This document shows positions 958 through 63,480 of a DNA stretch of 64,000 bases, piece after piece (the first letter of the stretch is position 1; each line of letters begins with the position of its first letter). Made by a program: the position numbers and the translations under genes. The notes beneath the pieces were generated by a model. That model was not told where the DNA came from. It saw only the letters and a program-made list of their open reading frames with translations, and did not search any database. The DNA lies in the NCBI GenBank assembly GCA_964016885.1, contig OZ024743.1, positions 14,446,001-14,510,000 of the forward strand, read 5' to 3'. This stretch comes from Eledone cirrhosa. Taxonomy: Eukaryota.

Positions 958-1765
958 ATGAATGATACCTCCAATATTATCACTCACATTGAGGCAAAAC
1001 CCCTATAAATCTAGTTTTTTAAAACCCCTATAATTTTTTTTTTTAAAAGGATTTTCTTCTTGGTATAATTGTCTCCTTTCTTTTTTTCTCTATTTTAATA
1101 TGTAGACGAAAAACCTCTATAAATAAACAATTCTGTTATTAGGTGTGAATATGGGATTGTTGGTCTTATATTTATATATACTTACATGGGTTTCTCACAA
1201 ATAGTCACCTGTCGTCTCTCTTAAGGAAACATTTTAAACCTCTATTTCACACCCACTGTATCCGGTGTCAATTATATGTCTGTTTGTTTTGGGCTTAATT
1301 GAGAGTCCCAAATTCAAATAAACATTACCACTGTACAGGTAAATTTATATTTTTTAAATTTATAGTTCAGTTGATACAACTTACTTCCATAAGATTAAAT
1401 TATTTGCCCATGCCAGTAATGTTTTTCTACCGATTATACCGTGGATTATTTAATATTTCTGTAAATATAAATTGACAAATCAATTCTAACATTTCCTTAT
1501 TCCTGAAGAGGTGTAGATGAATTGATGCATTATCAGTGAATTTACATAAGTATATATATAAGTATATATACATATATAAGTATATATGTGTATATGTGTA
1601 TGTATATATGGACGTATGTATGTGTGTGTCTATATGGATGGACATGTATATATGTATCTATCTATGTGTGTGTGTGTATGTATATATATATATATATATA
1701 TATATATATATATATATATATATATAATATATATAAGATCAAAAGATGGTTAAAAGAGTTCCATG

Positions 1766-1836
1766 TATTTTATTATGCGCATTTCAAAAACAAATATCAT
1801 CATGCGAAGACATTTGCGTTTTCGTCAGATAAAATA
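1766..1836 (-). ncRNA. Type I hammerhead ribozyme (inverted-arm copy)
   Basis: tattttat-CTGACGA-stem II-GAAA-tgcgca-TA-ataaaata on the minus strand; 8-bp stem I, palindromic stem III. Confidence 0.8.
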
Positions 1837-3770
1837 GGGAGACATGATATGAAGGTTAAAAAACACTTGTGAATAGTGCAGTTTTAAATCAACATATGAA
1901 AAGTAGTTTTAGATTCATGTGTGATATTGGGAAAAAAGTTGAGGGGTGGGGTGGAAAGGATGAAAAAGAGGAGGAGATGAGAGTAAAGAATGGAGGGGGG
2001 AGGAGTATAATAAGGAAGGATGAGATAGGAGGAGAGATGGGTGATAGAGAGAGAGAGAGATAGCTTTTATAACTGAGAAAAATATGTTGTTTTACATAGA
2101 GAGGTTATAAAACCGTTGGAAGATAATATATAAATTAAAAGAATTTGAAAATTAACGAAGTGAAACATTTTATAATAATGATAAATTATGGTTTGTATAT
2201 TGAAGGGTTTAATAATATGTGCGATGAAAAGAAATTGTTAATATGTATTAAGAATAATATTTAAGGGTTTAATAATATCTGCGATGGAAAGAAATTGTTG
2301 ATATGTATTATTAAAAAAATATAAAAAATATAATAATAGTAATGTAATTAAGGATATATTGTGAAGTAGAAGAGTGGATGAATAAGTTTAATATGTATAA
2401 GTTAGATGAACATGAAAGGGAGAAAAAATAATGAATTGAGGATGAATAATCTAACGTCAAAAAAATGTTTGTTTACGAAGGATTTTTCAAGGTGATATTA
2501 TAAAGTATATAAAAGGGTAAGGATATATTGTGGTGAGTAGTAATGAGAATTGAGAAGTATCTAGGAAGAAAAGTTACAGATTAGAGGTTAGAAATTAAAA
2601 GAAAAAAAGAAAAAAAGAAAAAAAAGGAAAAAAAAAAAGAATGGGAAGTGATAAATAGGAGTGATATAGAATGAATAACTAGTATTATATAATGTATAAT
2701 AAATAACATTGAAATAAGGTAGAAAGATGGGTATATTTTTAAAGAAATATATATGTGCCTTTGAGAAAAGGATTTTAAATTGGTAAAGTATTAGATATTA
2801 GCTGTATACTTTATGGAATGTTCTGTGGAATTTATGCAAGCAGAGAGAAAGCAAGTCAGTGCGTCTATTTATTATAGAATCTAAATAAGATATAATGATA
2901 AATTTCTCACATAAACAGAGATTACATGTCTTGGATAGAGAACCATTCAAGTATGGAGAAGCAGAACAAACCTTCTTCAAAGAGATGTTATAGTTAATAT
3001 TTTTGCCTTTCAAGGACCATATGAGTTATGAGAGTGCCGTGTTGGTTCTTTTAAGTTGGTATTTAAAAGACGAATGATATATTATAAAGACGAGCTTTAA
3101 AGGAGGTGGAAGTGGAGCCAAAATAGGTAAAGGAATTGGTGTCCGTTATAACTTTACATTCGTAGATTAGGTTTTTTTCAAGACAATGGTTGTTGAGAGG
3201 ACATTTATTTTTAACAGGGCAATTACAATTGCGATTAGAGAGATTTACATAGTTAATAACAAGTGACCTAGTGTTATCTATAGAAGGAATTCGATTGGAG
3301 AATTTATTTACGATAGGAATAATTTTTTCTTGATTTAAAATGGGATTAAGTATATTTAACGAAGTTGCGTTTGACGTTGTATTTGGGTTTGCAGAAATTA
3401 GCCTAGAGTTAACAATGACGTCGGGAGTACTATTACTATTATTATGATATTCAGTGTTGGAAGGAAGAGATTTAGTATTTAATATTTTATTGTTGTGTTT
3501 AGAGATAATGTTGGAGATGTTGGAGGAGGTCGAATAGGAAAATGTTATAGTGTGTTTGTTAAATATTTTACTATAGATATGCGAGGGAGGGAAGCATTTA
3601 TTTAAGGCACTAAAGAATAATTTAGGAATATTATTATTAATAGAGATGGAGAAAGGAACATTATACCAGATTATGTTTTTGTATCTAGGTCTTTTATTAA
3701 AGTTATTGGAATGATCATGATTAATTATTCATATGTAAGATCTTCTAGAATTTGTTTCTCTACTATATTT

Positions 3771-61635: not shown

Positions 61636-61686
61636 GGCTTTCTGATGATTTCCTCCGAATGAAACAGTTCTAGTCCTGTAGAAGCC
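61636..61686 (+). ncRNA. Type I hammerhead in a solo short arm
   Basis: ggcttt-CTGATGA-tttcctccgaat-GAAA-cag ttctagtc ctg-TA-gaagcc, followed by (TA)n. Confidence 0.8.
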
Positions 61687-62729
61687 ATTTCTATATTAAA
61701 TATATATATATATATATATATATATATATATATATATATATATATCAATCGATTTTTAATTCAATGTTAATAAAGGTGAAACGGCGTGAACAGACTGTTA
61801 GCTTCTCTCCCTTCTTTCGCCGAAAAGACGTGAAATAGTCACCACTTTAAAACGGATAGCGTATGGTCTTCAAAATGTGTTTATTTAAACATACGGTATA
61901 TTTCCAAATATACTATACATACATATATATACATATATATATTTTACTTTTATCTGAATGTGTGTATGCGTGTGTATATGTATGTATACATATCCTTTTC
62001 TGTATTGCTATATATATATCTATATATTATTTTTCTTGCCCTTCTTTTCCTATGTATATTTCCCGTTATTTTTCCAGCCTCACTTCCAATTTTTAACTGA
62101 TTTTAAATCACATTTCAAATCTTTCATCCATAACATCTCTTTCTGACGACAGATTCAGAGGTATATTATTATTGTCTGGTATGCAGAAATCTTTGGTAAT
62201 GGATTAGTTATATTTTGTATTGTTCACTTTCTAATTAAATAGCTCTGTTCTCCACATAGCACTCTTTTTTCCTTTGCTTTTCCTTCGGAATTACCTAACA
62301 CATACACACACACACACACACATATATATATATATATATATATATATATATATATATGGGGGTGGGGTCTACATATATATGACTGTATGTGCGCGTGCTT
62401 TCTCAAATTGCTATTCCTTTCCCTCCTTTGCTCAGCTTCTATATTCCTACTTACACTTTTCTTTCTCATTCTACTTTGTCATATGAGTCCGAAATGTAAC
62501 GACACATTTCTTAAAGTATCAAGCGTTAAACGAATACGTTACTTCAGTTTGGTGTGTTTGTTTGTTTTACTATTTCTTTGTAATTTTCATATATACACAC
62601 ATCATCATCATCATAGAATATGTATATATTTATAGGTGGATTTACGATCCGAATCGCACAATTTAAAATGCTTTAGTAATATATATATATATATATATAT
62701 ATATATATATATATATATATATATATATC

Positions 62730-63480
62730 ATAATATATTTAGAGTCATTTACAATTAATTAGCTCAAAGAAAGAAGCATTTCTAAGCCGTGAAATATAAG
62801 TTAATATAAATTAATATATGATAAACACCTAAGTGTTTGTATTGTAAAACACGAAGTTAGCTAGAATGAAATAAACTAATTCAAATAATTCAAATAAATA
62901 TAGCTTGCCTGTATCGATTTAAAATAATAAATCAATATACACAAACTCATATTGGCAAATAGCCGTGGTACTTCATCTCGAAGTGGTTACTTCACCTCGA
63001 AAAAATGTTGTGGTTACTTCACCTCGAAAAGATTTTGCCTCGAAAAAATTTTGAAGGTCTGGTTTACGAGCACAAAACGCACGAGGTTTTGCACTCCGTT
63101 TTGTGCACTCGGTTTTGTGCTCGTAAACCAGACCTTCAAAATTTTTTCGAGGTGAAGTAACCTAATTTTTCTGGGTACCTGTTGATAAGCACAGAAGATC
63201 GATTATTTCACTTTTTATACCATCGTTTGCGAAACTTGTTTGGATTTTGAAGTTCAGATTGATCTGCGGAAAAGGTTTGAATTTTGAAATTTAAATTTGT
63301 CCAGGTACCACGGCTATTTACCAGTATGAGTTTGTGTATATTGATTTATTATTTTACATCGATACAGGCAAGCTATATTTATTTGAATTATTTGAATTAG
63401 TTTATTTCATTCTAGCTAACTTCGTCTTTTACAATACAAACACTTAGGTGTTTATCATATATTAATTTATATTAACTTGT
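62730..63480. mobile_element. Inverted-repeat element (~170-bp arms) with an inner ~130-bp palindrome
   Basis: 62800-62971 is the reverse complement of 63305-63477; inner palindrome 63038-63162; bulged-hairpin tail on the left arm; (TA)n flanks. Confidence 0.75.

Follow-up and report, generated by a model that had tools for sequence, protein, structure and literature searches.

The short/long asymmetry of inverted pairs of Penelope-like retrotransposons (PLEs) is confirmed genome-wide, and in Hydra-clade elements the insertion ends 5–11 nt before a hairpin (H1) on one arm, the short end, and before another hairpin (H2) on the other, the long end. These sequences make it fairly probable that a dimeric reverse transcriptase (RT)-endonuclease attaches to a single RNA through both of its hairpins and uses the two sides of a cut (TA)n target as primers.

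Inverted pairs in the window and across the genome

An earlier note on the 64-kb stretch of DNA analysed here (the window) had listed ten inverted pairs with their 3′ ends pointing outward into (TA)n, and all 10 of 10 proved to be real inverted repeats in this orientation. Indeed, in each of the ten one arm lies flush with (TA)n while the other extends by 54–146 nt, and the window pairs place the short end just 5′ of a hairpin and the long end ~30–90 nt beyond it, as had been described. The pairs, hairpins and coding features are as follows.

1729..7114, pair 1: short end ~1729–1736 (minus arm), long end ~7107–7114 (plus arm)
3621–5570, broken Hydra-type ORF pieces of pair 1
7029..7053, plus strand, hairpin H1 of pair 1
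10288..10705, pair 2: short end 10288, long end 10705; H1 10629–10653 (plus strand)
10962..14021, pair 3: long end 10962 (minus arm), short end 14021; H1 11034–11055 (minus strand); hammerhead core upstream
15366..15558, pair 4, family F4: long end 15366, short end 15558; H1 15414–15437 (minus strand)
31005..36160, pair 5: long end 31005, short end 36160; H1 31043–31063 (minus strand)
38637..39810, pair 6: short end 38637, long end ~39810; variant H1 39702–39725 (plus strand)
39027..39047, minus strand, H2 of pair 6, visible within its tandem left arm, directly past the long-end site
39922..40098, pair 7: long end 39922, short end 40098; H1 39965–39983 (minus strand)
43011..45446, minus strand, putative intact Hydra-clade PLE ORF, ATG at 45446; RT, DKT, RxRW, CxCx5C linker, C-terminal GIY-YIG
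45476..45589, minus strand, H2 in the leader of ORF 43011–45446, 9 nt past its family's long-end site
46360..46493, extra F4 pair with its long end on the left and its short end on the right; absent from the earlier list
50611..50791, pair 8: long end 50611, short end 50791; H1 50651–50670 (minus strand)
50818..50990, extra short/long pair of a family without the RCTC..GAGY hairpin
53757..53946, extra F4 pair with its long end on the left and its short end on the right
56552..58910, pair 9: short end 56552, long end 58910; H1 58792–58862 (plus strand)
60305..60507, extra F4 pair with its short end on the left and its long end on the right
62729..63479, pair 10: long end 62729, short end 63479; H1 62762–62787 (minus strand)

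Some details of the original list changed. The pair placed at 39702 (pair 6) is real, but its hairpin is a GTTC/(G)AAC variant, its long arm reaches ~39810 and its left arm is a partial tandem; likewise the pair placed at 58764 (pair 9) stands, with the family hairpin beginning at 58792, behind a small local duplication. The arms at 32160 and 35680, offered as a possible exception, align loosely and each match different copy sets, so that they do not form a pair; they are unrelated long ends among the insertions nested in the interior of pair 5. A second, nearly identical copy of one window locus lies elsewhere on its contig.

PLEs are the retroelements closest to telomerase, and the window elements are, on the evidence of their sequence, members of the Hydra clade. 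This clade is defined by a DKG to DKT change, an RWK-type motif, a CxCx5C linker, and CxxC and CxH motifs near the end, as outlined in PMC8557442. The aligned ORFs carry HSDKT, RxRWR, CNCx5C, CxLC and CxH; ORF 43011–45446, kin to the pair 9 family, aligns end to end with the F4 ORF at locus L184, including both the RT motifs and the C-terminal YIG motif. Since a Pfam scan of five PLE ORF pieces gave zero matches, the Hydra-type assignment rests on motifs and homologues, and published Hydra sequences were compared by eye. The window and F4 insertions also lie in (TA)n, the target of Hydra-clade PLEs. The typical insertion unit, a partial tandem with an inverted 5′-truncated copy and a tail at one end, is present at L184, L190, L228, L440 and L441. 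In pairs 3 and 5 hammerhead cores are legible by eye 5′ of the short site, as is a variant form in F4; among the 150 matches listed of 181 from an Rfam scan of the window there was no hammerhead, and those listed were microsatellite-driven miRNA matches only.

The genome-wide census of ends that the earlier note had named as its check was made for family F4, for which 21,374 short and 21,345 long ends were counted. At the long site 20,982 copies pass directly into (TA)n and 292 continue into H2; independent contigs break into (TA)n at these two points as well, and depth drops from ~19,000 to 8 past the long site. One-of-each pairing was far above chance, with 61 of 62 adjacent listed head-to-head pairs combining a short and a long end (binomial p = 3e-17). 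Across 39 family probes 271/327 raw pairs were one-of-each, and after inspection of the same-class rows (n = 36) there remained 2 true or probable long/long pairs; true long/long pairs amount to about 1% (L125 and L439). Unpartnered ends also occurred (4/20 followed up), with further cases in another set. The rule was seen in dozens of families, other organisms included; for example, family G, which has a non-Hydra ORF, showed 19,008 short and 17,365 long ends, and 36 of its 40 adjacent pairs were short/long.

Twin hairpins at the insertion ends

In the element leader a hammerhead core is followed by the short site, H1, the long site, H2 and the ATG, in that order. The short end keeps a fixed position with respect to H1, and terminal long arms carry H1 alone. 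The distance from the 3′ side of H1 to the long end ranges over 47–121 nt (nine families), as against 5–9 nt from the long end to H2, which follows it in 9 of 10 families (0.07 expected; the family 36 leader was left out of this set). Because the long end varies relative to H1 and is fixed relative to H2, both ends lie directly upstream of a hairpin. H2 is normally uncopied, being seen only in tandem copies and leaders, and the element sequence runs on past the long end into H2 and the ORF. TA or TAT is present at both sites, and tails in the motif-bearing families measure about 60–190 nt.

The hairpin stem is ACTC/GAGT in 11 host families and GCTC/GAGC in 10. With a 2-nt bulge register 94 of 120 cells are paired, compared with 66 when shuffled, and the first upper pair of H1 shows a T-A/C-G exchange. 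The RCTC..GAGY anchor of the earlier note is not universal, being present in 21 of 39 family clusters. A structure common to families held within the Hydra clade but not beyond it: PLE families with other ORFs keep the one-of-each rule without the motif, and the hairpins therefore cannot be its general cause. Sequence comparison places the twin-hairpin motif as Hydra-clade-specific.

H2 is conserved in unrelated organisms. In metagenome leaders, which come from unrelated contigs and were recovered by an alignment-based scan, two hairpins occur in 23 of 38 non-redundant Hydra-type leaders (0.00 expected), TA lies 7–10 nt before 40 of 46 hairpins (random: 27%), and 6 of 7 mappable element ends fall 7–11 nt before H1 or H2. 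A metagenome scan with a single protein confirmed nothing.

Arms, template and a candidate mechanism

The arms of a pair resemble each other in sequence and in extent. An identical subfamily haplotype is present on both arms in 64 of 76 pairs (15 when shuffled), with a few pairs differing at two diagnostic sites, and in 116 of 119 F4 pairs both arms either pass or stop near one 5′ point (Fisher p = 5e-10). Because subfamily variants are shared and 5′ ends stop together, these data point to one template for both arms. Which arm is the more truncated does vary, as had been claimed (among 78 pairs the short-end arm is longer in 32, the long-end arm in 24, and 22 are undecided), but the very short or long state of the arms is strongly coupled within a pair. 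The common stop point was resolved in F4, reference copies of other families being poor, and a promoter reading is limited to F4 because a 5′ stop is not established on those copies. A hammerhead cut was considered as the main F4 stop and rejected; it would sit 17 nt before the short site, and most arms stop 50–61 nt before it. Centre junctions and flanks vary from copy to copy.

Every step of the mechanism that we favour is read from inserted DNA. H1 and H2 would act as RNA and bind the protein, presumably a dimer, and each cut strand would pair with UA just 5′ of one hairpin. The two cDNAs would both extend toward the RNA 5′ end, with the long-site cDNA copying through H1, and their 3′ ends would then be joined head to head. 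As H2 is never copied at the terminal end, the tail would be the stretch between the two start sites. The very common mini fold-backs would result when the hairpin pair used lies near the RNA 5′ end, and long or full-length copies when it lies in a tandem unit further downstream. More tentatively, the twin-hairpin RNA cassette may be the whole targeting signal of this marine-animal retroelement clade, the dimer clamping one RNA and writing into both break ends, with each half measuring ~8 nt back. If so, ruler-based, two-ended reverse transcription would account for the tails and the inverted repeats of PLEs, and any RNA lying upstream of the cassette should be mobilised by it alone, in the form of an inverted duplication.

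Two-ended priming as the earlier note had proposed it, with two ends in (TA)n and one start site each, fits all tests and accords with in vitro results for another PLE (PMC11167929); its placement of one start directly upstream and the other downstream of a single protein-bound hairpin is not supported. The fixed short end and the presence of H1 alone on terminal long arms would suit such a placement, which the long end's variable distance from H1 and close spacing to H2, together with the retention of H2 in unrelated organisms, render improbable. Could each enzyme half instead carry its own RNA molecule, an asymmetric complex forcing starts at H1 and H2? Matching arms would also be expected from two RNAs of one source locus, and such an arrangement would account for the constant spacing and for arms duplicated in full with no need of strand displacement; in addition, 12 of 76 F4 pairs are not identical at diagnostic positions, mostly at the background rate. 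However, mismatch at diagnostic columns within pairs (15/380) is about that of background (98/3040), only 3 of 119 pairs combine a long and a short arm, and a further rule would be required against short/short and long/long pairs, so that we consider two RNAs unlikely, albeit with some chance of being right.

A somewhat smaller chance attaches to fold-back of the cDNA, or a self-primed antisense template, followed by endonuclease trimming of the DNA near two motifs that act in DNA. Self-priming and endonuclease-mediated resolution are both suggested in passages of PMC3846280 and PMC8557442, matching arms and coupled lengths are predicted, and overlaps of 1–4 nt are frequent at the junctions of pair centres. 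Yet one arm class should then always be the longer, which the split between short-end and long-end arms contradicts, 8 of 108 F4 long arms hold tail sequence alone that is missing from the short arm, and starts in vitro coincide with tail ends (PMC11167929). Inheritance of the asymmetry, through palindromic units copied whole, or an artefact of duplication or assembly, deserves very little credence; many F4 mini-units are of similar length and one window locus is duplicated, but centres and flanks are copy-specific, mini-units lack H2, independent contigs break at the same points with the same loss of depth, and the rule extends over dozens of families and other organisms.

Comparison with known systems

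Published work already describes a tail on one side only and a pair of start sites, and our comparison suggests that the twin hairpins and the strict pairing are new: neither was found in the published literature searched, although Supplementary Figures S1 and S2 of PMC11167929 may bear on this. The origin of PLE inverted repeats and one-sided tails is a long-noted oddity, flagged as unresolved in published work. The twin hairpins offer a defined RNA signal, start positions predicted to within a few bases and a distinction between one RNA and two, and the question becomes directly testable by an existing type of in vitro assay. For annotation, the MITE-like palindromes of this genome, tens of thousands in number, would be PLE reaction products, and a short hairpin motif would provide a means of locating the ends of Hydra-clade elements.

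In LINE-1 twin priming, which involves 3′ poly(A) priming, a single RNA is the template for both ends of the cut target and an inverted 5′ part results, with the second primer annealing at variable internal sites and the cDNAs barely overlapping. In the present elements the two sites are constant and each arm duplicates the other; LINE-1-type twin priming was rejected on this duplication and on the long end being internal, with the element continuing into H2 and the ORF. Retrozymes and MITE-like fold-backs are short, high-copy, non-coding, hammerhead-associated or palindromic, and have TA targets. The mini fold-backs here are likewise short, high-copy and non-coding with TA targets, but differ in their copy-specific centres, unequal ends and absence of H2, and for these reasons look like dead-end PLE products rather than self-propagating units. 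A DNA transposon or MITE, for which symmetric terminal inverted repeats and an unvarying interior would be expected, was rejected, given unequal ends, centres that differ between copies and an RT ORF in long copies.

Hydra-clade elements as described in section 11 and File S7 of PMC8557442 share the ORF motifs, (TA)n targeting, a putative hammerhead near the 3′ end, partial tandems, an inverted 5′-truncated copy and a tail often at one end only. That description gives a tail of 30–40 bp, "often" one-ended and credited to endonuclease resolution, whereas the motif-bearing families here have the longer tails given above, ~99% one-of-each pairing and ends tied to twin hairpins. Those parts of its text and supplement do not mention twin hairpins, although they are present in the File S7 consensus sequences.

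A biochemically studied counterpart is PAc, a Poseidon element of Anolis carolinensis (PMC11167929). In vitro, both strands of its AT-rich target are cleaved and extended, reverse transcription starts at two internal RNA sites that match the tail ends, and the protein is predicted to be a dimer. The start site was the same for both strands, which alone does not show one-of-each; a strict single start per end, as proposed here, is not reported for PAc. Its starts involve one AC-rich stem-loop inside the ORF, reported as not homologous to the target, whereas those of the elements described here would lie in the leader, each before a CTC..GAG hairpin of its own and at a TA that matches the target.

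Short and long ends of inverted pairs in the window

The host genome is 3.0-Gb, the window is AT-rich with numerous (TA)n runs, and comparing the window with itself recovered the inverted pairs described in an earlier note. The accessible parts of PMC8557442 give (TA)n as the insertion target of the Hydra clade of Penelope-like elements (PLEs), and the PLE features of the window are those listed there for this clade. All ten listed pairs follow the rule of one short and one long end that the earlier note had put forward: in 10/10 one arm is flush with (TA)n and the other runs on for 54-146 nt before reaching it, and six further short/long pairs lie within the window. 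The suspected exception, 32160/35680, dissolves on comparison, its arms belonging to two different families that form no pair.

The surroundings of these pairs hold other repeats. Two extra inverted pairs with (TA)n on their flanks lie at 10794-10918 and 36187-36582; the former is related to pair 2, though diverged from it, and carries a hairpin of its own. A 115-bp palindrome at 63038-63152, in the spacer of pair 10, has no (TA)n flank and may be a small element in its own right. A single (TA)n run is often occupied by more than one family (40099-40136, 10706-10961, 50792-50817), and clusters thus arise as later insertions enter the flanking DNA of earlier ones. Both 43011-45449 and 15350-15560 recur, identical or nearly so and with matching flanks, about 0.6 Mb off on their contig (G000:C4:13865926 and C4:13895723), which points to either a recent segmental duplication or a haplotype left uncollapsed. 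The 3' part of a non-LTR retroelement at 25551-29810 (+), in three partial tandem copies with RT and zf-RVT domains, has no relation to the PLE pairs. Many copies of a short dispersed repeat family (783-959, 14739-14813, 21399-25084, 55675-56496) are present in both orientations, and they do not end in (TA)n.

Pairing of ends across the genome

One-of-each pairing is a real, nearly exceptionless rule in a known element class. Exact-pattern counts gave 21,374 short and 21,345 long ends genome-wide for F4, the family of window pair 15366-15558. The earlier note had proposed a genome-wide check of inverted-pair ends; the first places listed for one contig, less 10 short rows outside the range common to both classes, comprised 90 short ends and 100 long ones. 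Neighbouring ends made up 62 head-to-head pairs, 61 of them one-of-each, and the lone exception is a junction inside a tandem, the outer ends of which are one long and one short. Another 66 listed ends had no listed partner. Of 20 stretches retrieved around such ends and around long pairs, 16 held a partner of the opposite class and 4 held none. A second family, G, which has a non-Hydra ORF, gave 19,008 short and, with a narrower pattern, 17,365 long ends; its 40 adjacent pairs (after removal of 6 long rows that lay out of range) comprised 36 one-of-each and four long/long, the latter being one tandem junction, one true long/long pair and two rows with different subfamily marks. Frequent long/long or short/short pairs, which the earlier note took as telling against the rule, were looked for in this way, and true long/long pairs proved rare.

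We also searched de novo a non-random sample enriched for F4 and G, consisting of fetched loci merged to 1.51 Mb after 30 best-hit loci were excluded as biased. This gave 235 short/long candidates in 50 clusters, 11 of which were discarded as nested or cross-insertion matches. The 39 remaining family probes, discovered via short/long pairs so that a family never making such pairs would be missed, yielded 327 adjacent pairs. Of these, 271 combined a short with a long end, 33 were long+long and 3 short+short, and in 20 an end stayed unclassified. Fifteen of the 36 same-class rows are self-hits of one family's internal palindrome; the other 21 break down into ten tandem junctions whose outer end is short, four short/long pairs for which the probe was set wrongly, five ambiguous rows and two true or probable long/long pairs.

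Two hairpins in the element leader

Directly after the short site lies a hairpin, H1, composed of a basal RCTC:GAGY stem, a 3'-side bulge and an upper stem. This motif follows the short site in 21/39 clusters (0.24 expected), the outer pair matching in all 21 (ACTC/GAGT in 11, GCTC/GAGC in 10) and the bulge measuring 2 nt in 20; the hairpin, claimed earlier as a structure common to the families, is common to these clusters but was not found in the remainder. Wherever a motif-bearing cluster could be assigned an ORF, that ORF is Hydra-type, and three motif-less clusters have other PLE-like ORFs. Modal distances on natural leader copies place the short end 8-11 nt from H1 in 7/9 families, and 2 and 4 nt from it in two others with few ends and TA-like sequence. 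Short/long pairs lacking the CTC..GAG motif occur in clusters 1, 5, 6, 10, 18, 31, 43 and 49 and at window 50818-50990; motif-less families have shorter tails (~40-77 nt), several of them AC-rich.

In tandem copies the element sequence runs on beyond the long end, which is therefore internal, and there a second hairpin, H2, of the same form as H1, precedes the ATG. H2 fits the strict pattern in 9/10 families (0.07 expected), and in the remaining family H2 is intact in a different copy. The long end has a modal distance of 5-9 nt to H2 in ten families, again mapped on natural leader copies, and lies 47-121 nt from the 3' side of H1, with TA at both the short and the long site. At F4 long sites, 20,982 copies pass into (TA)n versus 292 that read through into H2. 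Within the window H2 is located at:

45476-45589, second hairpin (H2)
39027-39047, second hairpin (H2)

Leaders with this layout are also found outside the host genome. Metagenomes searched with a 115-homologue alignment yielded 78 loci, 56 with sufficient leader and 38 after near-duplicate removal, among which 23 leaders contain two hairpins (0.00 expected), 10 contain one and 5 none; the spacing is 52-83 nt in 22/23 two-hairpin leaders. Good pairing is obtained only in the 2-nt bulge register, H1 has a Watson-Crick first upper pair in 23/23 (15 T-A, 8 C-G), and 94/120 cells are paired versus 66 when shuffled, a contrast that related sequences can inflate; the upper stem is weaker in H2. TA starts 7-10 nt before 40/46 of these hairpins (27% at random), and 6/7 mappable ends sit 7-11 nt before H1 or H2 (one of the six by eye), the seventh having a variant motif. 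By-eye inspection of File S7 of PMC8557442 revealed both hairpins at the start of the sea-cucumber consensus Hydra-1_Ajap, ahead of the ATG, H1 at the end of Hydra-2_Ajap and coral Hydra-2_Amil, variant hairpins in Hydra-1_Crog, and no clear hairpin pair in Hydra-1_Obim or Hydra-1_Amil.

Template, mechanism and known elements

The two arms of an F4 pair share a template lineage. Among 108 pairs, 76 had two arms of sufficient length, and in 64 of these both arms carry the same subfamily haplotype, versus 15 when shuffled; mismatch between arms at diagnostic columns equals background, and because the arms are ~3% different elsewhere they are not now being homogenised. A single fold-back would hardly account for two observations: either arm can be the longer (the short-end arm in 32 pairs, the long-end arm in 24, with 22 unresolved, by a rough method that mis-scores tandems) and 8/108 long arms consist of tail sequence only. 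Which arm is more 5'-truncated does vary, as the earlier note had put it, but F4 arms stop together at a 5' point: the majority end 50-61 nt before the short site, and stops are coupled within pairs (both arms short in 108, both longer in 8, one short and one longer in 3). Because a TATA-like box and an initiator-like sequence are present there, this point may, judging from one family, be the RNA's 5' end. At fetched locus L184 (4815-4860), the stop point of most F4 arms, the box lies ~30 nt upstream of the initiator-like sequence within F4 hammerhead loop II, and runs of extra T at the junction suggest untemplated additions.

Short non-coding F4 tandem units of ~230-360 nt were seen at L333 (1377-2040), at L336, L355, L357 and L358 (~1240-1800), and at G000:C2:356030079-356031903, one array having seven units with a 299-nt period. 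They contain both hairpins and restart at the identical 5' point, which suggests an origin by successive jumps between templates or from a small RNA circle; they could be the sources of the mini fold-backs.

From the arrangement of ends and hairpins, we consider it fairly probable that both hairpins would be RNA binding sites for a dimeric enzyme, that both strands of the cut target would be primed on one RNA, and that the resulting cDNAs would be joined head to head. Standing against this mechanism are the non-Hydra families, which keep the pairing rule without the motif, together with the rare long/long pairs and the partnerless ends.

The end asymmetry itself is already known in outline, as the accessible parts of PMC8557442 and PMC3846280 describe a tail often found at one end of inverted PLE insertions; those of PMC8969392 and PMC13282606 add nothing further on it. 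Our literature search, thin on subscription papers and older PLE reviews, found no report of twin hairpins or strict one-of-each pairing, and neither turned up when the PMC8557442 supplement was searched by keyword. The twin-hairpin ruler placing both ends appears to be new and, if so, gives a testable handle on the mechanism. For comparison, PMC11167929, in its accessible part, describes reverse transcription that starts at two internal sites, reports that both strands are cut and extended, and predicts a dimeric protein.
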